Shown in pieces: positions 3,855 through 61,117 of a stretch of DNA of 64,000 bases (positions are counted from its first letter, which is position 1; each line of letters opens with the position of its first letter). Source of the stretch: Candidatus Marinacidobacterales bacterium (GTDB lineage: Bacteria; Acidobacteriota; Vicinamibacteria; Marinacidobacterales; SMYC01); the NCBI GenBank assembly GCA_965224085.1, contig CBDCYI010000011.1, positions 1,543,639 to 1,607,638 on the forward strand, written 5' to 3'. The translations under genes and the position numbers were made by a program. The notes below the pieces were generated by a model, which searched no databases, was not told the origin of the DNA, and saw only the letters and a program-made list of their open reading frames with translations.

Positions 3855-4005
3855 CTCCAGGTGCTGCTGGTGACAAGCACGTCGGTACGGCGTTCGCTTC
3901 AGGCCTGGCCGAGCCGGTTTTAAACCTTTCCCGGAAAAGCCTCGTCATATCCGAATCAAGAGCGTGGCGGATGGGCCGCCATGTGGATGGCCGTCGGGAG
4001 GCTAA

Positions 4006-4619
4006 TTGAGTAATCTGAGCTCGGTGGCCAGCTTCGACAAGAGCAAACCGGCCCCGTTGGCGCGGCTGGACGCCCAGGAGAGGCGCGCCGAAGACGAGCG
4101 CCTCGTGGCGCGACTGCGGGCGGGAGATGGCGAGGCCTCGAGGCGCTCTATCGGCGTCACAGCTCGGGTGTCTTTGGCCTGGCGCTCAGAATGCTTCAAA
4201 ACCGCGCCGATGCCGAGGATCTGCTGCAGGAGATCTTTTTGCAGGCCTACGACAAAATCGACAAGTTCGAAGGCCGCTCCGCCTTCGGCACTTGGCTCTA
4301 TCGACTCGGCGTCAATCGCTGCCTCGACCATCTCCGGAGCCGTAGCGCCAAAGAACAGTCTCGAACGGAGCCCTTGGGCCCGACACTCCCCGGCCGAGCC
4401 GGAAGCGGCACCCGGAAGCTAGAGCTCGAACGCGCGATCGGGGAGCTTCCTCCCTCGAGCCGCGCCGCTTTCCTGCTCCACGACGTCGAGGGCTATGAAC
4501 ACAAAGAAGTGGGCGAGATCCTCGGAATCGCTGTGGGAACGTCGAAGTCCCTCGTCCATCGCGCGCGTATGAAACTACGGACACGTTTGTATCCAAGCGC
4601 CGCGGGAGAAACATCATGA
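4006..4619 (+). CDS. ECF (sigma-24 type) RNA polymerase sigma factor, interrupted by 1-nt frameshift near 4138
   Basis: Frame A gives ...RLVARLRAGDGEA. Frame B gives EALYRRHSSGVFGLALRMLQNRADAEDLLQEIFLQAY ... region 4 (ELPPSSRAAFLLHDVEGYEHKEVGEILGIAVGTSKSLVHRAR). One missing T in gag-gcc-t(t)c-gag would restore a single ORF of about 204 aa. Confidence 0.7.
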
Positions 4620-5572
4620 CAGAAGATGCATTCACCGAGCAGCTGAGCGATTACATCGACAGAGAGCACGGGCTGGGAGAGCGGGAAGCTCTCGAAAGTC
4701 ATCTCGAGCAGTGCACGGATTGTCGGACTGTGCTCGGGCAGCTACGTGCCGTACGCCGAGACGCGAAGACGCTCACGCGCCATGCCCCCGCCGAGCAGGT
4801 GTGGGTCGCCATTGCAGAATCTATCCGTACCGGCGAGCGCACCCGGTCGCGAAGGTCTTATTTTCACACCGGGCTCGCCGCGGCCGCCGCCGTCGTTGTC
4901 GGCGTGAGCCTCTTGGTCGCGCTTCGTCCGTCGAACGAGATTCGGATGGCCGACTTAGCGAACGACGATCCGGCTGCGCTCGCGAACTTGGTGACGGACG
5001 AGCTCCGAGCCGCGGAGATTCATTATGAAAACGCGATCAAGGGGCTCGAACAAATCATCGAGCACAACGAAGGCACGCTCCCGAACGAGCTGAACGGAAC
5101 GATGAACGAGAGTCTCGACGTCATCGAGCAGGCCATCACGGAGAGCCGTGAAGCCATGGCGACGGAGCCGGGGAGCTCGGCCGCCCAAGAAAGCCTTCTC
5201 GAAGCTTTCCGGCGTAAAGTCGATCTTCTTCAGAATACCATTCTGCTCATCAACGAAGTTCGCAAGGGCGAGGGTCAAAACGCCCTCGACTTGATAGACG
5301 AAATCTGTGGATCGGACGACCCATCGGATGAAACGAGTGCCAGACAAGAAAGACATGCCAGACAAGAAAGACATGAAAAAGATACGATTCACAACCACGT
5401 TACTGATTGGCGCCGTTCTGACGGCAGGCATGAGCGTCGCGCAGGACCGCGAAGAGCGGATCTCGCAGACGTTCGATATCGGCCCCAATGGAGAGTTTTC
5501 TCTTTCCAACATCTCCGGAGACATCCGTGTTTCTGGAACTTCCGGGAATCAAGTGACGATCGAGGCGGTTAA
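4616..5572 (+). CDS. anti-sigma factor (zinc-finger type, single TM, periplasmic domain)
   Basis: Start overlaps the sigma stop (ATGA). N-terminal HLEQCTDCR putative zinc-finger, TM segment LAAAAAVVVGVSLLVAL, then a helical periplasmic domain. The 3' end is uncertain; the ORF overlaps the next gene by about 200 nt. Confidence 0.6.
   Translation: MTEDAFTEQLSDYIDREHGLGEREALESHLEQCTDCRTVLGQLRAVRRDAKTLTRHAPAEQVWVAIAESIRTGERTRSRRSYFHTGLAAAAAVVVGVSLLVALRPSNEIRMADLANDDPAALANLVTDELRAAEIHYENAIKGLEQIIEHNEGTLPNELNGTMNESLDVIEQAITESREAMATEPGSSAAQESLLEAFRRKVDLLQNTILLINEVRKGEGQNALDLIDEICGSDDPSDETSARQERHARQERHEKDTIHNHVTDWRRSDGRHERRAGPRRADLADVRYRPQWRVFSFQHLRRHPCFWNFRESSDDRGG
5339..5374 (+). repeat. exact 18-nt tandem duplication (gccagacaagaaagacat x2) spanning candidate start codons of the DUF4097 gene
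   Basis: Unit at 5339-5356 repeats exactly at 5357-5374. It encodes (PDKKDM)x2 in the DUF4097 frame and (ARQERH)x2 in the anti-sigma frame. Confidence 0.85.
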
Positions 5573-9400: not shown

Positions 9401-10228
9401 GTGGCAGAGAAGTGGGCGAGGAGTAAAAAGGACGTCGGCATAAGTGGTTCTTCCGTTCGTGCCTCGCTCCGCGGCGCGTATCTGACCATTGCGGGCACTC
9501 TCGCGAGAGAGCCCAAAGGAGACTTTCTCCACTGCCTCTATCTGCACGGCGTTTACGACGATCAAGTCGAGAACTTCAGGTCCGTGCTCGACGCGCTACT
9601 CGATATCGGCCGCTTCATCGGGACTAGCGAAGTCTTCGACATCCTCGAAGATCGCGCCAAGCTGAACGGTCGCCTATTCCACTTGTCTTTCGACGATGGA
9701 TTCGACAACAACTATCGCAACGCTTTCCCGTCATTGTCGGAACGCGGCATTCATGCCGCGTTCTTCGTTCCCTCGACTCTCGTCGGCGCATCCAACGCTT
9801 TCGTCTTGGAACATTGGTGGGCGCCCGAGCAATCGCCGACCCGCTTCATGACGTGGAGTCAAGTTCGGGAGCTCTCGGATTGCGGTCACGAGATCGGAAG
9901 CCACACGCGCACGCATAAAAGACTGCGCTCCGAAGAACAACGTCCAGACCAGCTCCGCGATCAGATACGCGGATCGAAGCAGGAAATCGAAGACCAACTC
10001 GGCTCCGCGTGTCGATACATCGCATGGCCGTTCGGAACCGCGCGGGATATCGACGACGCGGCGCATAGAGAGATCATAGCGGCGGGCTATGACGGCAGCT
10101 TCAGCGCCGTTCGCGGATCGGCGTCACCGGAAACGTCCCGCTACTCGGTCCCGAGGCACCATTTTGAGGCCGATTGGAGCTGGCCGCACGTGCGTTATTT
10201 CGCGCTCGGAAATGGCGCCACAAGCTGA
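9401..10228 (+). CDS. polysaccharide deacetylase family protein (NodB homology domain)
   Basis: HLSFDDGF (TFDDG motif), HTRTH, WPFG motifs. Confidence 0.8.
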   Translation: MAEKWARSKKDVGISGSSVRASLRGAYLTIAGTLAREPKGDFLHCLYLHGVYDDQVENFRSVLDALLDIGRFIGTSEVFDILEDRAKLNGRLFHLSFDDGFDNNYRNAFPSLSERGIHAAFFVPSTLVGASNAFVLEHWWAPEQSPTRFMTWSQVRELSDCGHEIGSHTRTHKRLRSEEQRPDQLRDQIRGSKQEIEDQLGSACRYIAWPFGTARDIDDAAHREIIAAGYDGSFSAVRGSASPETSRYSVPRHHFEADWSWPHVRYFALGNGATS

Positions 10229-10995
10229 TGCGCATCGTCATCATCACCGCATTGCGCCACGGCACGGCCAGTCGTTGCCTTCCTTCGCTCGCAGCGCATC
10301 GCGAGATCGATGTCGCGCTGGTTATTCGTACCGAGCGGCAATACCGCACGCGGGGACGAAAGCTGCGGCGCGACGTCAAGAAGATCCTGCGCATCGGCCC
10401 CATCGGCGCTCTCATGGGACGCCACTTGCGTTCGTGGTACGAGGGTCCGAAAACGGAGGATCTCGAGGCTTTGGCGCGCCGTGAAGGCGTGCGTTACGAG
10501 CAAACGCCACTTGCGAACGGAGATGAAACGGTCGAGCTCATGCGATCGGCCGACGCCGATCTCGGGCTATCCCTCGGAAACGGGTATTTGTTCCCAAAGG
10601 TCTTTCGCGTCCCGAAGCTCGGCACGGTCAACGTCCACGGGGAGGTTCTACCGGAATTTCGCGGAGGCTCGAGCGTCATCTGGCCGATCTACGAAGGCGT
10701 CCGGGAAACAGGGCTTACCGTCCATCGCATGGACGAGAGGATCGACACAGGCGAGATTCTCCATCGGGAGCGCTTCCCCATCGCTTTCAAGGACAGTCTG
10801 CGCGAAACGGTGGAGCACAACGCGGCCGAGATCTCGCGACGTATTCCGGGAGCGCTCGTCCACGTGATCACGCACTTCGACGAGCTCGTCGCGAAACAAG
10901 TACCCCAAGGCATCGGACGCAACTATACTACCCCCACATTCCGCCAATATCGCCGCATGGTACGCCAACACGACCGACTTTCCTCTGGCCTCTAA
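10228..10995 (+). CDS. formyltransferase family protein (Fmt/ArnA N-domain-like)
   Basis: NVHGEVLPEFRGGSSVIWPIYEGVRETGLTVHRMDERIDTGEIL matches formyl_trans_N. Its start overlaps the previous stop (TGATG). Confidence 0.75.
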   Translation: MRIVIITALRHGTASRCLPSLAAHREIDVALVIRTERQYRTRGRKLRRDVKKILRIGPIGALMGRHLRSWYEGPKTEDLEALARREGVRYEQTPLANGDETVELMRSADADLGLSLGNGYLFPKVFRVPKLGTVNVHGEVLPEFRGGSSVIWPIYEGVRETGLTVHRMDERIDTGEILHRERFPIAFKDSLRETVEHNAAEISRRIPGALVHVITHFDELVAKQVPQGIGRNYTTPTFRQYRRMVRQHDRLSSGL

Positions 10996-11172: not shown

Positions 11173-12654
11173 TTATCGTAATAGGTGCCTTGCCATTACC
11201 AACAGGTTGCAGGTGATGATGGAACTCCATACGTAGGATTTGAAAGAAGGCAATGAGCGCCATGTGCATCGGTCGAGACCAAAGACTCGTTTCAAGAACG
11301 AAATGACGCCTTCGATTCCGCAGCGAAATCGCCGTAGGCGTTGATAGACCCAGGAACTCTTGACCATATCGGTCACCGCGAAGTGAGCCTTGGTAAAGGC
11401 AACATCTTCAACTCCCTTGCCTTTGATGGCTTCCAAGTTTGCCTTTGAAGAAAACGCGCCATCGTAGGCAACCTGGCGCGGGGCCCGTTCGTAGAGTTCG
11501 ACTTGACGGTCGATCATGGTTTCCGCGAGAGTTGAATCGGACGGATTCCCATCCAAGATCACGCAATCCAAAATCATCGAGGACGAGCCACCAGTCAAAC
11601 ACACCTTGTGACCGTAGAGAGTCTCGCGCCGGTCTTTGCGAATAATGTCGGTGTGTTCTTCGAAGATCGAAACGACCTTTTCCTCCGCAGGCACACGCTC
11701 TTCATCAATCACTCTACGCCGAGTTTGGTTGATGACTTTTTCGGTGAGGACGAGAAAGTGCTTAAAATCCGCGGCGATCTTCTCCGCACTCGCTCGCTTC
11801 ACCGGCTCGGTCAAGCCGGACTCGTCCAACTGGTCTGCAACGCGTTGAGCGGAGCGATAGGTTTCTTCCGACACCTTCAGTAGATCTCGATAGACGCGAC
11901 GCCTTTGTTCCTTATCCTTCGCGTTTAGAACTCCCAGTCGACGTCTCTTCGCTCGACGCGTTCGATTGCCGAAGACCACTACTGTACCCAGCAGTTCGCG
12001 AGTTCGGCACATGAGGCGAGTGAGAACTCGGACGCAGTCATAAAGAAGCTCGGAGTCCGTAGGAGAATGAATATTCGACTCCACTACCGTGCAGTCCACT
12101 CGTACTTTTCTTCCTTTTTCGATCGCGGTCTTCTCGGCAACACTCACCAACTCTCGGTTGATTTTCTCCAGCGTTTCGAACTTCACGGCTTTGATGTTTG
12201 CTGCTAGGGTCGACTTCGACGGGCTCGGCTCTATGATGCCGAGCTGGCAAAACGTCCGATAGCTTCGAGAGTCTGCCATCGATTTTCTCCAGCGTTTCGA
12301 ACTTCACGGCTTTGATGTTTGCTGCTAGGGTCGTGACGGGCTCGGCTCTATGATGCCGAGCTGGCAAAACGTCCGATAGCTTCGAGAGTCTGCCAAGTGA
12401 AACGCCAGCTCCCGATAGGTGAACTGATTCAGCTGCTTGACCAACAACGCCCGGAGAACCTGCTCCGCGCTCATTCCCCCACGACCAACATCGCTCCCTG
12501 CCGATGGGGTGACCGACCTCAGGTCTTGCAGTACCAGCTCATTGAGCTTAGGATGGGCATCGAGCAGCGATGATATCGTTTCGAGCTCGCGTGCGTGCTC
12601 CAGCTCCAGCCAGGGCTCGCGAAGGCTTGGTTGTGGGTTGATCGTTTTTCGCAT
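11173..12654 (-). pseudogene. IS5-family DDE transposase ORF interrupted by ~118-nt internal tandem duplication
   Basis: The two ORF pieces share the duplicated peptide ADSRSYRTFCQLGIIEPSPS...TLAANIKAVKFETLEKI. Removing one repeat unit would reconstitute a single ORF of about 455 aa. Confidence 0.6.
12161..12395. repeat. imperfect tandem duplication (~120 + ~115 nt) inside transposase gene
   Basis: Unit gattttctccagcgtttcgaacttcacggctttgatgtttgctgctagggtcg...gagagtctgcca occurs twice. The copies differ by a 4-nt indel (acttcgac vs tgac) and the length is not a multiple of 3. Confidence 0.85.
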
Positions 12655-12861
12655 TTAGGGCTGGTCTCCTTTGGAGTTAAGTCGTTTAGAATCTGCGTTT
12701 TTGTCGACTCGATACTAAACGACACTCCCTCAGAAGGCTAGCCCTAAATTTGCGATTACCCCTTTTTTCTCAACCTCTTACACCTGTCAGGACGGGTACT
12801 AACTAACCAGCCAGAATCGTGGATTCCGTTCATGTTCTAGAGATCTATCTGAAGCGCCGCT

Positions 12862-55718: not shown

Positions 55719-56353
55719 TCAATCTCGTACGGCGACAAACGGTAGTTGACGGTAGCGTTGGTTGTCGTCTAGGCCGTAGCCGACGACGAGGCGATCGGGG
55801 ACTTCGAAGCCGACATAATCGACAGCAACGTCGAACTCGCGCCGGGACGGCTTCGATAGAAACGCGGCCACCTTTAATGTAGCCGGCTCGCGCGAACGGA
55901 GCATGTTGAGAAGATAGTTGAGCGTGAGCCCTGTATCCGCAATGTCCTCGACGACGATCACGTCGCGGCCCGCGAGCGACAAGTCCAGGTCCTTCGTCAG
56001 CTGAACCTCTCCGCTCGAAGTTTTGCCCTTCCCATAGGATGACACCGCGAGGAAGTCGAGCGTCACCGGCACTTCCATCGCTCGCGCGAGATCGGCGAGA
56101 AAAGTATAGCGCCTTTCAGCACGCAGATGAGATGGACCGTCTTCCCTTGATAGTCCGCGCTGATTTCTTTAGCCAGCTCGCGGACGCGCCTCGCGATTTG
56201 TTCTTCGCTGATCAGGACTTCCATTCTCTCTCTAGTGTCTAACTCGCTCACCGAGCGCGGGCGGCAGCTCGCGCGAAGTGTAAGGCGATTAGGGAAGTGT
56301 AAGGCAGGGACGTGTAGGGACAGGAGGGGATAAGGGGATCTCCGCCTCTCCAC
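55719..56353 (-). pseudogene. hpt: hypoxanthine phosphoribosyltransferase split by -1 frameshift in an A4/T4 homopolymer (about 56100-56103)
   Basis: The 5' piece gives EVLISEEQIARRVRELA...GKTVHLICVLKGA. The 3' piece gives (FLADLARA)MEVPVTLDFLAVSSYG...VVEDIADTGLTL...VGYGLD. Inserting one T on the sense strand restores a single Hpt ORF. Confidence 0.75.
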
Positions 56354-56416: not shown

Positions 56417-57349
56417 TCAGCCTTGGGCGAACAACTCGAACGTCACGGTAATGACGCCGTAGGCTTCGATCGGCCGGCCCTCTTTGAGGGCGGGCTTCCA
56501 CCTCCAGAGTTTGGCATTATCTTTAGCAGCCTCGACGCAATACCGAAGGGATTTCAAGACCCGGACGACTTCGGTGGTCCCGTCGAGCTTCACGAGGACT
56601 TCGAGCAACACTTCCCCTCGCACCATCTTTTCGCGGGCAGCGGCCGGATAGTCGGGGCTCGGAGGCTTGAAAACAAGAGCGGGCTCGATATCCCACGCGC
56701 CCGGCGAGTAATCGCCGCCGCCGAAACCGCCTCCGCGCCCGGGGCCGACCGCCCAGCCTTCGCCGCTACCCACGCCCGTGCCTTCGCCGCCGCCGACACC
56801 GCCATCGGTGCCTGCGCTCGGTCGGTTGTCGAGGCCGCCGAAATCCCGCATGTCATCCAAAGACAATCCGGGGAACTCTTGCTCATCCGGCGAGAACACC
56901 CCAGCGAAAATGATATCCGTATCGGTAGGTAAATCCGGAACGTTCAAGTCGTCGAAACGGAGCTTTGGCGGCTTTCGGGGCGCCACTGGCGCGCGACGCG
57001 GCTCCGGCTCCACCTCGGGCTCCGGCGCCTCCGGCGGTGGTCTTGTGCGGATAAAGGCGGAAATCCGCTCCCCACCCGAGCCGCCACCACCGCCACCGCT
57101 CCCGCGCCCACTCCCGCCTGGCTCATAGAAGCGGACGAGCACCCCTCCCGCTTCCATCGGATCTTGGGACATCCAGCTAGCTATGGGCGGGAGAAGCATG
57201 AAGAGGAAGACGAGAACATGCACACCCCCGGCGGCCGAGAGAGATTTTGTGCGTTCGTCCCAACCGAGCTTTGGCGCACTCTCCTCGGAGAGGCGTTCCA
57301 TTCCGGAAAAGAACTCCGGACCTTGGCTCATGTCACCCATCCTGGCCAA
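56417..57349 (-). CDS. TonB-family energy transducer
   Basis: TM anchor, Pro/Gly-rich spacer and a C-terminal TonB_C domain. Confidence 0.7.
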   Translation of the reverse strand: MARMGDMSQGPEFFSGMERLSEESAPKLGWDERTKSLSAAGGVHVLVFLFMLLPPIASWMSQDPMEAGGVLVRFYEPGGSGRGSGGGGGGSGGERISAFIRTRPPPEAPEPEVEPEPRRAPVAPRKPPKLRFDDLNVPDLPTDTDIIFAGVFSPDEQEFPGLSLDDMRDFGGLDNRPSAGTDGGVGGGEGTGVGSGEGWAVGPGRGGGFGGGDYSPGAWDIEPALVFKPPSPDYPAAAREKMVRGEVLLEVLVKLDGTTEVVRVLKSLRYCVEAAKDNAKLWRWKPALKEGRPIEAYGVITVTFELFAQG

Positions 57350-57490
57350 ATGTTAGCACGGCGGCCAGGACGACGCCCGTCGCCGGCCATGAACTTGCGT
57401 CCTACGGGTCGGCCCCGACGGACCGCGGATTTCCGTCGCCGATTCAAGGGCTTGCAAGAAATCAAGGGGCGTCATAGATTAAGCCGAGTG

Positions 57491-58120
57491 GCCGACGACA
57501 AACGCCGCATCCTGACGGGCGAGGATGTCCAATCGATTCCTGAAGGAGGTATTCTCGACATCACGCCGGGCACGTTGCTCACCGACATCGCTCGTGAGTG
57601 GGTCGACCGGCGCAAGATCCGAATCGTCGAACGCATGCGCTCGGGCGACGACGCCATCGCCGCAGTGAAGCTCGCGATCGGCTCTGACCATGGCGGCTTC
57701 GAAATGAAAAGCGCCCTCAGGGAATACCTCGACGTGCTAAAAGCGAGTTATATCGACTATGGCACCCGTTCGAAAAGAGCGGTCGACTACCCGGACATCG
57801 CCCACGCCGTCGCTCTCTCCGTCGCCCTCGGACAGGCGAAGCAAGGGATCATCATCGACGGCGCCGGTATCGGCTCAGCCATCGTCGCTAACAAAGTCCC
57901 TGGCATTCGCGCAGCAGCGTGCTACGAGGAAGCGGGCGCTATGAACGCACGCGAGCACAACGACATCAACGTGCTCACGCTCGGCTCCAACCTGATGCTC
58001 CCCGAAAAGCTGCGGCCCATCGTGCGCATCTTCATGAGCGCCGAGCACCGCGAGCCCCGTCACAAGAACCGGGTGGCGAAGATCATGGCGGTCGAAAAGA
58101 AGTATTATCGACCCGTATGA
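57491..58120 (+). CDS. rpiB: ribose-5-phosphate isomerase B (RpiB/LacA/LacB family) with ~55-aa N-terminal extension
   Basis: [13 protein letters not shown]...[12 protein letters not shown]...[17 protein letters not shown]...EHNDINVL. The start is uncertain (GTG near 57491); upstream ORF extensions are Arg-rich antisense of tonB. Confidence 0.75.
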
Positions 58121-58950
58121 GCTGGGACCTGGAACGTCTCACAGACGCGGTGACCGAGGCTGTGCTCTTGGAGCTCGGCGCCGCCGATCGTCCATGCAGC
58201 TGCCATCATCTCGATCGCAGCCAGTGTCCCGACGTGATGCAGCCGCTCGTCGATCGCGGCGCGGAACGGTTTGGCCTAACGGCTTCCGCTCCTCATCGAA
58301 GCCTCGCCGCTCTCATCGACCACACGCTTCTCAAACCCGACGCCACCGAAGAGCAGATCCGAACGCTGTGCGCCGAAGCGGCCACGCATCGATTCGCGAC
58401 TGTATGTATTCAGCCAACCTGGGTGCGGCTCGCCGCCCAGCTTCTTCGCGGAACGAGCGTCGGCGTTTGCACCGTCTCCGGATTTCCGCTTGGCGCCAAT
58501 AGTCCGGACGTCAAAGCCTACGAGACCCGTCGCGCAATATTCGACGGCGCCAATGAAGTCGACATGGTGATCAATATCGGCGCACTCAAGTCGATAGACT
58601 ACCGCACCGTCGAAGACGACATCCGCGGAGTCGTCGAAGCGTGCCGAGAAGGATCCGCGCTGAGCAAGGTCATCATAGAGACGGCGCTTCTCACCGAAGA
58701 CGAGAAAGTCAAAGCATCCACGCTCGTGGCTGCGGCCGGCGCCGACTTCATCAAGACCTCGACCGGATTCGGGCCCGGAGGCGCAACCGTCGAAGACGTC
58801 GCGCTCATGCGGGACATCGTCGGCCAGAAAATGGGCGTCAAAGCCGCAGGTGGCGTCCGCGATCGCGCGACCGCAAAACAGATGGTGGATGCCGGAGCAA
58901 CCCGGATCGGCGCGAGTGCGGGGATCCGCATCATTCAGGCGAGCGACTAA
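58117..58950 (+). CDS. deoC: deoxyribose-phosphate aldolase with ~55-aa N-terminal extension
   Basis: DHTLLKP...FATVCIQP...GFPLG...KVIIE...[11 protein letters not shown]...VKAAGGV. The N-terminal extension contains CSCHH...C. Confidence 0.85.
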
Positions 58951-59578
58951 GAGCCCGACTCGCTTGCTCGTAGTCCTCTGGCGTATCGATATCGACGCAA
59001 ACTCCCGGATCCTCGACAGGTATCTCGAGTACTTCGTCGTGGTGGCGCGCGAGCAAAGACTTCCCGCCCTGATCGCCGACGAGGGTCAGAAACTCCTCGA
59101 CAAGCTCCGCGACAAAGAGCACAGGATGCCCCTGCTCGCCTCGATAGACCGGATGGGCGATGCGCGCACCGACTTCGTCGAAGGTGGCCGTGAGCGTGCG
59201 GATCGTCTCAGGCTTCACGAGCGGTTTGTCGGCGAGTGCTACGAGCACGATGCGCGTTTCTTCGGGCAAGCGCTCGAGCCCGCATCGGAGCGAGCTCGCG
59301 AGTCCGTCGTTGCTGCCAGGATTTATTACCACCTCGACGCGCTCATCATCTTTAAATAGTTTGAATGGTTTAAATGGCTTGAATGGTTTATGAGGCTCAC
59401 AAAGCTCGCTCGGAGACTCGCCAGGCGAAGCGACGACGACGAGAACACGATCAAGCTCGGCGGCCAACAAATTGCGGAGGCTCCTCGACAGCATCGTCTC
59501 GCCGCCGAAAGCGAGATCGAGCTTCGGACGCCCCATTCGGCGCGATGCGCCCGCCGCAAGAAGTACCGCGACGCGCAC
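58931..59578 (-). CDS. MobA-like NTP transferase, YgfJ/MocA-like molybdenum-hydroxylase accessory protein
   Basis: [16 protein letters not shown]-terminal motif. Lies directly downstream of yqeC. Confidence 0.7.
59351..59390. repeat. 9-nt tandem repeat x4 (ttgaatggt-like) inside ygfJ-like gene
   Basis: tttaaatag ttgaatggt ttaaatggc ttgaatggt. Encodes [14 protein letters not shown] on the minus strand. Confidence 0.8.
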
Positions 59579-59581
59579 CGG

Positions 59582-60367
59582 TCACTCCGCCTCGGGACGC
59601 ATTCGATAGAAACATTCGGTCGGCTTGATCGCTTCGCCGAAGACAACCTCTGAAACACCTTGCTGCAATAGGCGCTCTCCGATGCTTTCCGCAGCTTTCA
59701 GACGGTAGTCGACGGCCTTGTTCAACAGGACGGTGTGGCGGCTCCCCTTCGGGATCTTAGGAAGGTAGCCTTTGACGATCGTGGCTGCGATGACGGCGTC
59801 GGTGACGTCCATGCCCGGCGACGCTCCCGATAAGCTAGCCACGATCTCGAGTCTATGGACATGCTCCCCATCGAGCTTGTGGTCGAGAACGTCGAGGCCG
59901 ACGAGGATCGCGGTGAGCGTCGTTTCAGCCGGAATCACAGGTTCGTGGCTCGCCGGCGCTTTCAAGGAACGCCCACGAGCACCGTCGGCCTCGATGACAA
60001 CACAATCGGCAAGACTTCGGAGCGGGTCCAGCATCACGGGATCTACTCCAGCGAGCTTGTCGTCCCGTTTCCGATCCTGAATCACGATCACCGAGCCGTA
60101 GCGCCGAAGCCGCGCTTTGACCGTAGTGAGCCAATTGTCTTGCTCACCCACGACGACGAGCGGCGGCATCGTCGTCGCCGTCATAGGCATCTGCATATGG
60201 GTCGTCGACGTCGCGACGACGCTCAAGCCCTGGCGCCGGAGCTCCCCCGTGAGCGCGTAGAGCACGGTGGTCTTGCCGCCCGCGCCCACGAGGCTCACAA
60301 CGTCACCTTTGCCTATCGATAGCGCGTCGGCGAGCCCAAAACTCGAATCGATCGCGATTTTCGCCAT
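59582..60367 (-). CDS. yqeC: putative selenium-dependent hydroxylase accessory protein YqeC
   Basis: MAKIAIDSSFGLADALSIGKGDVVSLVGAGGKTTVLYAL... matches the YqeC family (P-loop GAGGKTT). The longer ORF N-terminus is rejected. Confidence 0.7.
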   Translation of the reverse strand: MAKIAIDSSFGLADALSIGKGDVVSLVGAGGKTTVLYALTGELRRQGLSVVATSTTHMQMPMTATTMPPLVVVGEQDNWLTTVKARLRRYGSVIVIQDRKRDDKLAGVDPVMLDPLRSLADCVVIEADGARGRSLKAPASHEPVIPAETTLTAILVGLDVLDHKLDGEHVHRLEIVASLSGASPGMDVTDAVIAATIVKGYLPKIPKGSRHTVLLNKAVDYRLKAAESIGERLLQQGVSEVVFGEAIKPTECFYRMRPEAE

Positions 60368-60412
60368 TCGTCGAGAGAGTACTATAGGATACACGGTGAG
60401 AGAACTGGAACG

Positions 60413-61117
60413 ATGCGCATTCCCGTCGCGATCCCCGTTGTCCTCATGAGCTTGGCCGCCGCGCACTGCGCCGGCCAAGAGGACTATGCGGAGGCGCGCC
60501 GAACCATGGTGCGCGAGCACCTGCAGGGGCGGGACATCTCCGACCCTCGAGTCCTCGAGGTCATGAGCCATGTGCCGCGACACGAGTTCGTGCCCGCCAT
60601 GTTGCGCTCGCAAGCCTATGCCGATCACGCCCTGCCAATAGCGGAAGGTCAAACGATCTCCCAACCCTACATCGTTGCGCTGATGACCCAGCTCGCCGAG
60701 ATCGAGGAGGACCATGCGGTTCTCGAGATCGGGACCGGCTCCGGCTATCAGTCAGCCGTCCTCGCCGAGATGGTCCGTGAGGTCCATACCATCGAGATCA
60801 TCCCCGAGCTCGCCGAAAGCGCCCAAGCGAAGCTCGCGGCTCTCGGTTACGAGAACGTGCATGGAAAAACCGGAGACGGTTATCTCGGGTGGGCGGAAAA
60901 GGCTCCCTACGACGCCATTCTCGTCACCGCGGCAGCCCCTGAAGTGCCGCCGCCTCTCATAGCACAGCTCGCCCCCGGCGGTATTCTTGTCATCCCCGTC
61001 GGCCCTCAATCGCAAGTTCAAAAACTCCTTCGGATCGAAAAAACGAATGACGGCACGACAACGACCGAAGAGATAATCCCAGTCGTCTTCGTACCCCTCG
61101 TCCGCGAGCGGCGATAA
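60413..61117 (+). CDS. pcm: protein-L-isoaspartate O-methyltransferase
   Basis: LEIGTGSGYQSA SAM motif. A possible N-terminal signal peptide is present. Confidence 0.9.
   Translation: MRIPVAIPVVLMSLAAAHCAGQEDYAEARRTMVREHLQGRDISDPRVLEVMSHVPRHEFVPAMLRSQAYADHALPIAEGQTISQPYIVALMTQLAEIEEDHAVLEIGTGSGYQSAVLAEMVREVHTIEIIPELAESAQAKLAALGYENVHGKTGDGYLGWAEKAPYDAILVTAAAPEVPPPLIAQLAPGGILVIPVGPQSQVQKLLRIEKTNDGTTTTEEIIPVVFVPLVRERR

Follow-up and report, generated by a model that had tools for sequence, protein, structure and literature searches.

Does a yqeC gene beside a mocA-type gene mean that a bacterium makes molybdenum hydroxylases that depend on selenium (SDMH)? This question is raised by a 64-kb stretch of a Candidatus Marinacidobacterales chromosome (assembly GCA_965224085.1, contig CBDCYI010000011.1, positions 1,543,639 to 1,607,638; hereafter the window), in which two minus-strand open reading frames (ORFs), yqeC and then a mocA/ygfJ-like gene, fill positions 58931-60367 exactly. 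An initial annotation, made from the sequence alone, had placed the pair at the coordinates that we recover, and had read it as a marker of SDMH adjoining a nucleoside catabolism cluster. The family assignments hold, but the marker reading is not established: YqeB, SelD, and hydroxylase genes are missing from the window and from the 10 kb on either side of yqeC in 16 relatives. We consider it more probable, at roughly 60%, that yqeC and mocA form a maturation pair for the molybdopterin cytosine dinucleotide (MCD) cofactor of hydroxylases encoded elsewhere, and that the locus is a reduced remnant.

The first gene of the pair, yqeC (59582-60367, minus strand), encodes a P-loop NTPase of 261 amino acids. 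Its product passes the profile check proposed in the initial annotation, scoring 155.5 bits against TIGR03172 (cutoff 73.05) over profile positions 1-208 of 209, and scores 141.1 bits against PF19842 (cutoff 27.6); identity with Escherichia coli YqeC is 31% (E = 1e-31). A longer ORF of 377 amino acids, extending up to 60715 and overlapping the divergent pcm gene, is also available; the ATG at 60367 is preferred because most full-length homologs are 257-265 amino acids long and the gene calls of the source contig agree. The Walker A motif read from the translation, G28-A-G-G-K-T-T34 (60266-60286, minus strand), forms with the preceding valine a V-GAGGKTT P-loop at residues 27-34, and G28, A29, G30, G31, and K32 are invariant among 80 YqeC sequences from several phyla. 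Sequence conservation also identifies a Walker B-like motif, E126-A-D-G-A-R131 (59975-59992, minus strand), in which E126, D128, and G129 are invariant in the same sequences. The window protein keeps the consensus residue at all 24 positions that are conserved in at least 90% of this set; these include the Walker A GAGGKTT, TxTT, E126-A-D-G, K136-x-P, E142-P143, R172, and N216.

An AlphaFold2 model of YqeC, built with 47 homologs, reached a predicted local distance difference test (pLDDT) score of 92.2 and a predicted template modeling (pTM) score of 0.90. Foldseek searches of the PDB with this model returned the signal recognition particle GTPases FtsY and Ffh, MeaB, and BchL/NifH-like ATPases, all of them SIMIBI-class NTPases. 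MeaB is a cofactor-delivery GTPase that assists the delivery of B12 to methylmalonyl-CoA mutase. A sequence search found no solved YqeC structure, and on its predicted fold YqeC is a distinct SIMIBI-class P-loop NTPase. Residues 215-219 (59711-59725, minus strand) make up an NK(A)xD-like motif, LNKAVD in the window and NKAD in several other phyla, which recalls the G4 guanine-specificity motif of GTPases. Reading YqeC as a GTPase from this motif was considered; N216 is conserved, but the segment is NKAVD in the window and INRFS in the E. coli protein, and we make no such claim.

The second gene (58931-59578, minus strand; GTG start at 59576-59578) encodes a putative molybdenum cofactor cytidylyltransferase of 215 amino acids, which scores 129.6 bits against PF12804 (MobA-like NTP transferase; cutoff 27). 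Its N-terminal nucleotide-binding motif, L7-AAGASRRMG16 (59531-59560, minus strand), aligns with the ITAAGLSSRMG segment of MocA from E. coli, and every ortholog conserves it. In the literature, an AAG rather than an AGG in this motif separates CTP-using from GTP-using enzymes. The GTG start is correct, since the alternative start at M15, adopted for the 201-amino acid protein of the independent short-read assembly L002, would lose the nucleotide-binding motif. Relatives with solved structures (3d5n, 2we9, 2waw) are annotated as MocA/MobA-related. In pairwise comparisons with four orthologs, the ratio of nonsynonymous to synonymous substitution rates (dN/dS) is 0.11-0.24 for yqeC and 0.20-0.31 for mocA, which indicates that both genes are under purifying selection.

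Only 3 nt (59579-59581, minus strand) separate the yqeC TGA (59582-59584) from the mocA GTG, a spacing also seen in the orthologous loci L003, L013, and L014 (yqeC 10001-10786, mocA from 10790) and indicative of a two-gene operon. On the far side, mocA (minus) and deoC (plus) are convergent, their ORF coordinates overlapping by 20 nt at the 3' ends (58931-58950), as they do in relatives L003, L004, and L006. Upstream, a 45-bp divergent intergenic region (60368-60412) lies between yqeC (minus) and pcm (60413-61117, plus strand; Pfam PCMT match); a scan for sigma-70-like consensus sequences, not designed for Acidobacteria, found no match within it. The convergence with deoC and the divergence from pcm mean that yqeC-mocA is a transcription unit of its own, outside the nucleoside operons.

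To place this arrangement among its relatives, sequence within 10 kb on either side of YqeC homologs was fetched by exact-protein look-ups and by a scan across 185,579 species genomes with two YqeC peptide patterns (one of them EADGAR[GS]RS), the scan yielding 80 loci. All ORFs were annotated by phmmer. Proteins from the ygeW-xdhD cluster of E. coli served as queries together with SelD and the proteins of the window; E. coli YqeB entered as two queries, an XdhC-like part (residues 1-252) and a TIGR03309 part (residues 271-526). The window, from a soil or sediment acidobacterium, also lies in an 8.70-Mb contig assembled from a metagenome (ENA ERZ25072076, ctg246125_29x_l). Among species-level genomes, the nearest are metagenome-assembled chromosomes of Candidatus Marinacidobacterales (92% YqeC identity, OZ240210.1), an order within Vicinamibacteria (phylum Acidobacteriota).

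Within Vicinamibacteria these loci form a graded series at one syntenic position, with a CoA-transferase gene upstream and deoC-rpiB downstream. At 44-48% YqeC identity, seven of ten loci have yqeC-xdhC-yqeB, and the yqeB product scores 270-288 bits against TIGR03309 (cutoff 220). At 58-61% identity the order is yqeC-(mocA)-xdhC-carbamate kinase, with an SsnA-like gene a few genes upstream and a two-component system before deoC. At 67-73%, yqeC is followed either by a MocA::XdhC fusion or by mocA and then xdhC; the fusion stands directly after yqeC in L007 (10837-12195; 452 amino acids; PF12804, XdhC_CoxI, and XdhC_C) and occurs also in L017, L018, and L020. The window MocA is the counterpart of the N-terminal half only of these fusions. 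At 78% identity and above, as in the window, yqeC-mocA stands alone and mocA abuts deoC, an arrangement stably kept in five or more relatives at the species level.

The intermediate loci show what lies between. In L007 to L010, mocA and deoC are separated by XdhC, as a domain or as a gene, and by a GerE-type response regulator, to which carbamate kinase and histidine kinase genes may be added. Around yqeC-xdhC in L009 there are two extra genes (3897-5216 and 11817-12752; equivalents in L010; 55-59% identity): an SsnA-like aminohydrolase, which at 411.8 bits stays below the NF005540 cutoff of 444, and a carbamate kinase that passes TIGR00746 (375.7 against 358.25). These echo ssnA and yqeA-yqeB-yqeC of E. 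coli; SsnA and carbamate kinase (YqeA) have been associated with the 2,8-dioxopurine pathway (bioRxiv 10.1101/2025.04.24.650524). Across the 16 species of the clade at 58-92% identity, MocA is encoded within 10 kb of yqeC in 13, XdhC in 11, DeoC and RpiB in 15, and Pcm, divergent from yqeC, in 14; the XdhC proteins match generic XdhC models only (NF045664, TIGR02964) and have no TIGR03309 domain.

Because yqeC-xdhC-yqeB occupies the same syntenic position in distant Vicinamibacteria, the window locus looks like a reduced remnant. We infer by parsimony, with no rooted tree, that the ancestral Vicinamibacteria locus was yqeC-xdhC-yqeB and that the window represents its most reduced descendant. 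Given yqeB in the distant relatives and the SsnA-like and carbamate kinase genes in the intermediate ones, the ancestral locus was probably part of an island related to selenium and purines.

The components that would tie the pair to selenium were looked for in and around the window. The initial annotation had noted that the hydroxylase subunits, selD, and yqeB are not in the window, and a phmmer search of all ORFs in the 64 kb bears this out: none is a homolog of E. coli XdhA, XdhB, XdhC, XdhD, YgfM, YqeB, SelD, SsnA, or YqeA. The largest ORFs (773, 805, and 813 amino acids) were considered as candidate hydroxylases and rejected, as Pfam identifies them as a SpoIID/SPOR protein, BamA, and ClpB. 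The window contains no molybdenum cofactor riboswitch (no Rfam match at all at gathering thresholds) and no selenocysteine tRNA (no tRNA gene of any kind). Looking beyond it, as had been suggested, recovered no hydroxylase or selenium genes in the 6 kb past its right end. The YqeB domain (TIGR03309) is absent from the window, from those 6 kb, and from the 10 kb on either side of yqeC in 16/16 clade relatives; SelD and hydroxylase subunits, the large subunit included, are likewise absent from these flanks in all 16. None of the 26 Vicinamibacteria-like loci has a hydroxylase large, FAD, or Fe-S subunit in its flanks. When a Vicinamibacteria YqeB was searched against a collection of 5.8 billion proteins, closer homologs filled the list, and none of the 120 matches listed, all at about 61% identity or more, lay on a multi-megabase Marinacidobacterales contig. 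For a Holophagaceae SelD (from L079), the list was likewise filled, with matches all at 69% identity or more and none on those contigs, and those with names were from Holophagaceae (Holophaga, Geothrix, Mesoterricola) and one Spirochaetales.

With the diagnostic selenium components lost from the locus, the pair alone is no sign of selenium use. The literature likewise gives little reason to treat YqeC and YgfJ as selenium markers, as the initial annotation did. It is YqeB (TIGR03309) to which SelD is strictly linked (Haft and Self; PMC2276186), and the selenium-cofactor signature consists of YqeB and YqeC together, with SelD, YqeC alone not being one (PMC5029168). According to Neumann 2009, as relayed in PMC2997495, YgfJ is MocA, a general CTP:molybdopterin cytidylyltransferase for all MCD enzymes. 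In Clostridioides difficile, deletion of yqeC gave no purine phenotype, whereas deletion of yqeB mimics deletion of selD (PMC11448449).

The partners of YqeC across the 80 loci point in the same direction. MocA is encoded within 300 bp of YqeC, or fused to it, in 54/80 loci (58/80 within 10 kb). The corresponding counts are 18/80 (37/80) for the YqeB domain, 12/80 (41/80) for XdhC, 5/80 (26/80) for the hydroxylase large subunit, and 0/80 (3/80) for SelD. Across the 80 species, the bond of YqeC with MocA is much tighter than that with YqeB or SelD. YqeC and MocA form a single polypeptide in 27 loci, which are 27 of the 54 from other phyla and mostly Anaerolineae and other Chloroflexota (for example L036 9824-11344 and L061 9986-11329); in two of these fusions, TIGR03172 and TIGR03310-like matches were verified on one ORF. 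The fusion genes often adjoin a YqeB-domain gene and hydroxylase subunit genes, and hydroxylase genes are found near YqeC in 26 of the 54 loci from other phyla. Among the 29 of these loci with at least 5 kb of sequence on both sides of YqeC, MocA occurs with no nearby YqeB in nine and YqeB without MocA in three.

Comparison with characterized systems places the pair in context. In the E. coli ygeW-xdhD purine/uric-acid cluster, yqeC (b2876) and mocA/ygfJ (b2877) represent the same two families and are likewise adjacent; the YqeC proteins share the Walker A, ExDG, K-x-P, and E-P motifs, and the MocA proteins share the N-terminal AAGxSxRMG. The E. coli genes, however, are divergent and lie amid yqeB, yqeA, ssnA, ygfK, xdhD, and xdhABC, whereas the window pair is co-directional, 3 nt apart, and has no hydroxylase, yqeB, ssnA, or carbamate kinase gene within 64 kb. 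Selenium-cofactor loci (EF_2563-EF_2570 of Enterococcus faecalis, pNG7236-7241 of Haloarcula, and the Holophagaceae locus L079) contain YqeC and usually MocA, as here, but also have YqeB, SelD, and hydroxylase subunits nearby (PMC2276186; L079), of which the window and its 16 clade relatives have none. A further parallel is provided by the XdhC-MocA modules, which have no reported selenium requirement: pucA-pucB of Bacillus subtilis, xdhC-mocA on pAO1 of Arthrobacter nicotinovorans, and the module of Oligotropha carboxidovorans. Such maturation genes stand alone and are not in every case linked to a single hydroxylase operon (PMC2997495). Those relatives that have MocA::XdhC or mocA-xdhC right after yqeC resemble such modules; the review that describes the modules does not mention YqeC, and the window itself has no XdhC part.

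The arrangement also resembles MobA-MobB, MobB being a P-loop adaptor protein: in both, a MobA-fold nucleotidyltransferase is paired with a small P-loop NTPase, and natural fusions occur (MobA::MobB, NF011056; YqeC::MocA in the 27 loci above). The difference is that MobB serves the synthesis of molybdopterin guanine dinucleotide, in which GMP is added, while MocA is predicted to add CMP. E. coli mobB mutants are not known to show a clear phenotype, much like the yqeC deletion in C. difficile (PMC11448449). A literature search found no comparison of YqeC with MobB. In our preferred reading, the MocA-like enzyme would add CMP from CTP to Mo-molybdopterin, with YqeC as its dedicated SIMIBI-class NTPase partner; nucleotide hydrolysis by YqeC may assist the formation or hand-over of the MCD cofactor, much as MobB would act for MobA. 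The clients of the finished cofactor would presumably be xanthine-oxidase-family hydroxylases with genes at other sites in the 8.7-Mb chromosome. What is left at the locus would then derive from an ancestral Vicinamibacteria cluster, yqeC-(mocA)-xdhC-yqeB. The genes that appear to have been lost from it are yqeB, followed by that for the XdhC chaperone, together with those for the SsnA-like protein and carbamate kinase.

The pair may instead be part of a working SDMH pathway, in which YqeC and MocA, with YqeB and SelD encoded elsewhere, make an MCD cofactor that carries selenium and is destined for a hydroxylase of xanthine or purine. Several observations speak for this, and the same observations, with others, weigh against our preferred reading. 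The window YqeC passes TIGR03172, an equivalog that NCBI calls "selenium cofactor biosynthesis protein." When the phylogenetic profiling was first done, YqeC came first or second along with YqeB (PMC2276186). The occurrence of yqeB beside yqeC at the same locus in distant Vicinamibacteria suggests that ancestors of this lineage carried the trait. YqeC of other phyla is often beside a YqeB domain, hydroxylase subunits, and occasionally SelD (L056, L079, L083); the YqeB domain lies within 10 kb in 19 of the 29 loci with full flanks, and the selenium association is thus real across the family. Gut strains with the uric-acid cluster all carry YqeB, YqeC, and SelD (bioRxiv 10.1101/2025.04.24.650524). 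Furthermore, yqeB and selD could lie elsewhere in the chromosome, as in C. difficile, in which yqeC adjoins mocA and is unlinked to yqeB and the organism is nevertheless selenium-dependent (PMC11448449). Our own figures describe one sample, skewed toward relatives of the query and toward two peptide patterns, rather than frequencies for the whole family. The structural matches of YqeC, at a probability of about 1.0 and E values of about 1e-4, have template modeling scores of only 0.35-0.45, a moderate similarity (about 0.4) that leaves it with no close solved relative, and no biochemical activity has been reported in the literature for any YqeC. The ygfJ-like assignment of the second gene holds to the extent that TIGR03310 (MocA/YgfJ) is its best NCBIfam match, ahead of PucB TIGR03202 (106 bits) and MobA TIGR02665 (32.6 bits), but at 160.3 bits it misses the equivalog cutoff of 186.45, which E. 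coli MocA passes with 214. The repeat-free ortholog in L003 also falls short, at 172.2 bits, so the 9-nt repeat described below lowers the score only slightly. Lastly, hhalign aligned YqeC with E. coli MobB over just 33 columns around Walker A (probability 27.7%), and MobB was absent from the top 50 Foldseek matches of the YqeC model. YqeC was therefore rejected as a MobB homolog, the similarity being confined to the P-loop, and the likeness to MobB is kept as an analogy rather than as family membership. Against an SDMH pathway stand the absence of YqeB, SelD, and hydroxylase genes from the window, the adjoining 6 kb, and the flanks of 16/16 relatives; the lack of a TIGR03309 domain in the XdhC proteins that accompany YqeC in the clade; the standing of YqeC by itself as no accepted signature (PMC5029168); and the lack of a selenocysteine tRNA gene in the window. 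On balance we consider such a pathway unlikely here, and favor MCD-cofactor maturation for hydroxylases encoded elsewhere.

The pair could also be dedicated to the neighboring nucleoside catabolism, with purines released by PunA being oxidized by an MCD-dependent xanthine dehydrogenase in a co-regulated island. The initial annotation described the pair as back-to-back with deoC, rpiB, hpt, cdd, punA, nupC, and deoA, which is true in the sense of tail-to-tail; on the deoC side, Pfam identifies upp, deoA/pdp (pyrimidine-nucleoside phosphorylase), nupC, punA, cdd, hpt, a TonB_C protein, rpiB, and deoC. The adjacency to deoC-rpiB is found in 21 of the 26 Vicinamibacteria-like loci (44-92% YqeC identity), and the SsnA-like and carbamate kinase genes of the relatives are components of the E. 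coli ygeW-xdhD cluster as well as of the 2,8-dioxopurine pathway. A precedent exists in B. subtilis PucA and PucB, XdhC-like and MocA-like proteins that are required for growth on hypoxanthine (PMC2997495). The adjacency is real, but the functional link is weak. Convergent orientation and overlapping 3' ends mean that the pair is not co-transcribed with deoC, and a response regulator, histidine kinase, or other genes intervene in relatives at 55-72% identity; a two-component system splits the two groups in more distant relatives. DeoC and RpiB are near YqeC in 0/54 loci from other phyla, none of the Vicinamibacteria flanks contains a hydroxylase gene, and the adjacency falls inside a longer conserved block, from the CoA-transferase and GDSL lipase genes through pcm to rpiB, that fits plain synteny. 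Dedication of the pair to the adjacent cluster seems doubtful to us: the proximity of deoC-rpiB reflects inherited synteny rather than an operon, and a functional tie to nucleoside catabolism is possible but unproven.

Whether the pair still functions at all is a fair question for a locus that has lost yqeB, xdhC, and the carbamate kinase and SsnA-like genes step by step, in which a microsatellite has expanded within mocA, and near which hpt carries a frameshift. The microsatellite, a 9-nt (KPF)n repeat that the initial annotation had pointed out, was recovered by Tandem Repeats Finder as about 4.4 in-frame copies at 59351-59390 (minus strand), with scores of 52 for a 9-nt period and 66 for an 18-nt period; it has about 28% G+C against 61% in the surrounding region. 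The closest orthologs, L013, L003, L014, and L015, have a shorter, non-repetitive stretch in its place (YEPFE--ADVK in L013, LEPYEPLTYDE in L003), and there is no such segment at all in remoter relatives or in E. coli MocA. The tract sits between the second and third beta-strands, in a segment of varying length among close relatives and inside residues 49-82, a stretch with no alignment to the solved homolog 3d5n. Copy-number variation, suggested by a MocA of 201 rather than 215 amino acids in L002, was rejected: the repeat and the ORF are identical in DNA sequence in that assembly, and the shorter call merely starts at Met15. We read the repeat as a probable lineage-specific slipped-strand expansion in what would be a tolerant surface loop. 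Since it is in frame and in a loop that varies among orthologs, it does not point to decay, and neither do the two intact ORFs with their dN/dS of 0.11-0.31, the full set of conserved YqeC positions, or the persistence of the arrangement in other species. A decaying, non-functional leftover is thus very improbable, and a retained, functional MCD-maturation pair remains our preferred reading.

The remaining features of the region call for brief description. On the pcm side of the pair, Pfam identifies pcm, a DUF427 gene, a hypothetical gene, a GDSL lipase gene, and a family III CoA-transferase gene, and the 6 kb past the right end of the window contain genes for PP2C and a PatA-type response regulator, mlaDEF, and uvrB. 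In three relatives at 90% YqeC identity, at least one DDE transposase (DDE_Tnp_1_4) lies between the DUF427 gene and pcm (L003 7582-9117, L004 5720-9039, L006 7582-9117); the window has no such insertion upstream of yqeC. The hpt gene (55719-56353, minus strand) is broken into two overlapping ORFs of 96 and 119 amino acids by a frameshift near 56108, a 1-nt deletion relative to the intact 168-amino acid ortholog in L003 (GGCGC-TAT against GGCGCTTAC), which is either a long-read assembly error or a true pseudogene. The rpiB ORF (57164-58120, plus strand; 318 amino acids) has an RpiB domain that begins at residue 171, and gene callers give it 243 amino acids; the deoC ORF (57919-58950, plus strand) is called at 277 amino acids, of which the DeoC domain occupies about the last 207. 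Each of the two ORFs begins with a long extension at its N terminus that no Pfam family matches.

The window pair is an ordinary addition to known cofactor-maturation gene families, and for this genome the finding matters little: the genes are best annotated as an MCD-cofactor maturation pair and not as evidence of selenium use. For the family as a whole, we tentatively suggest, at somewhat less than even odds, that YqeC serves MocA as a general NTPase partner for making or delivering MCD, as the MCD counterpart of MobB, and is not specific to selenium. The comparative evidence for this idea is the persistence of yqeC-mocA under purifying selection after the loss of yqeB and xdhC from the locus, together with the YqeC::MocA fusions. 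If it is true, the statistical link of YqeC with YqeB and SelD would arise only because many MCD hydroxylases of anaerobes happen to be selenium-dependent, and "selenium cofactor biosynthesis protein YqeC," as NCBI names it, would be a misleading label. The findings hold a caution for metagenome surveys: YqeC should not be taken by itself as a marker of selenium. The order-wide retention of yqeC-mocA with no local yqeB, and the coupling to MocA, provide a testable hypothesis for the function of YqeC, whose knockout in C. difficile is puzzlingly silent.

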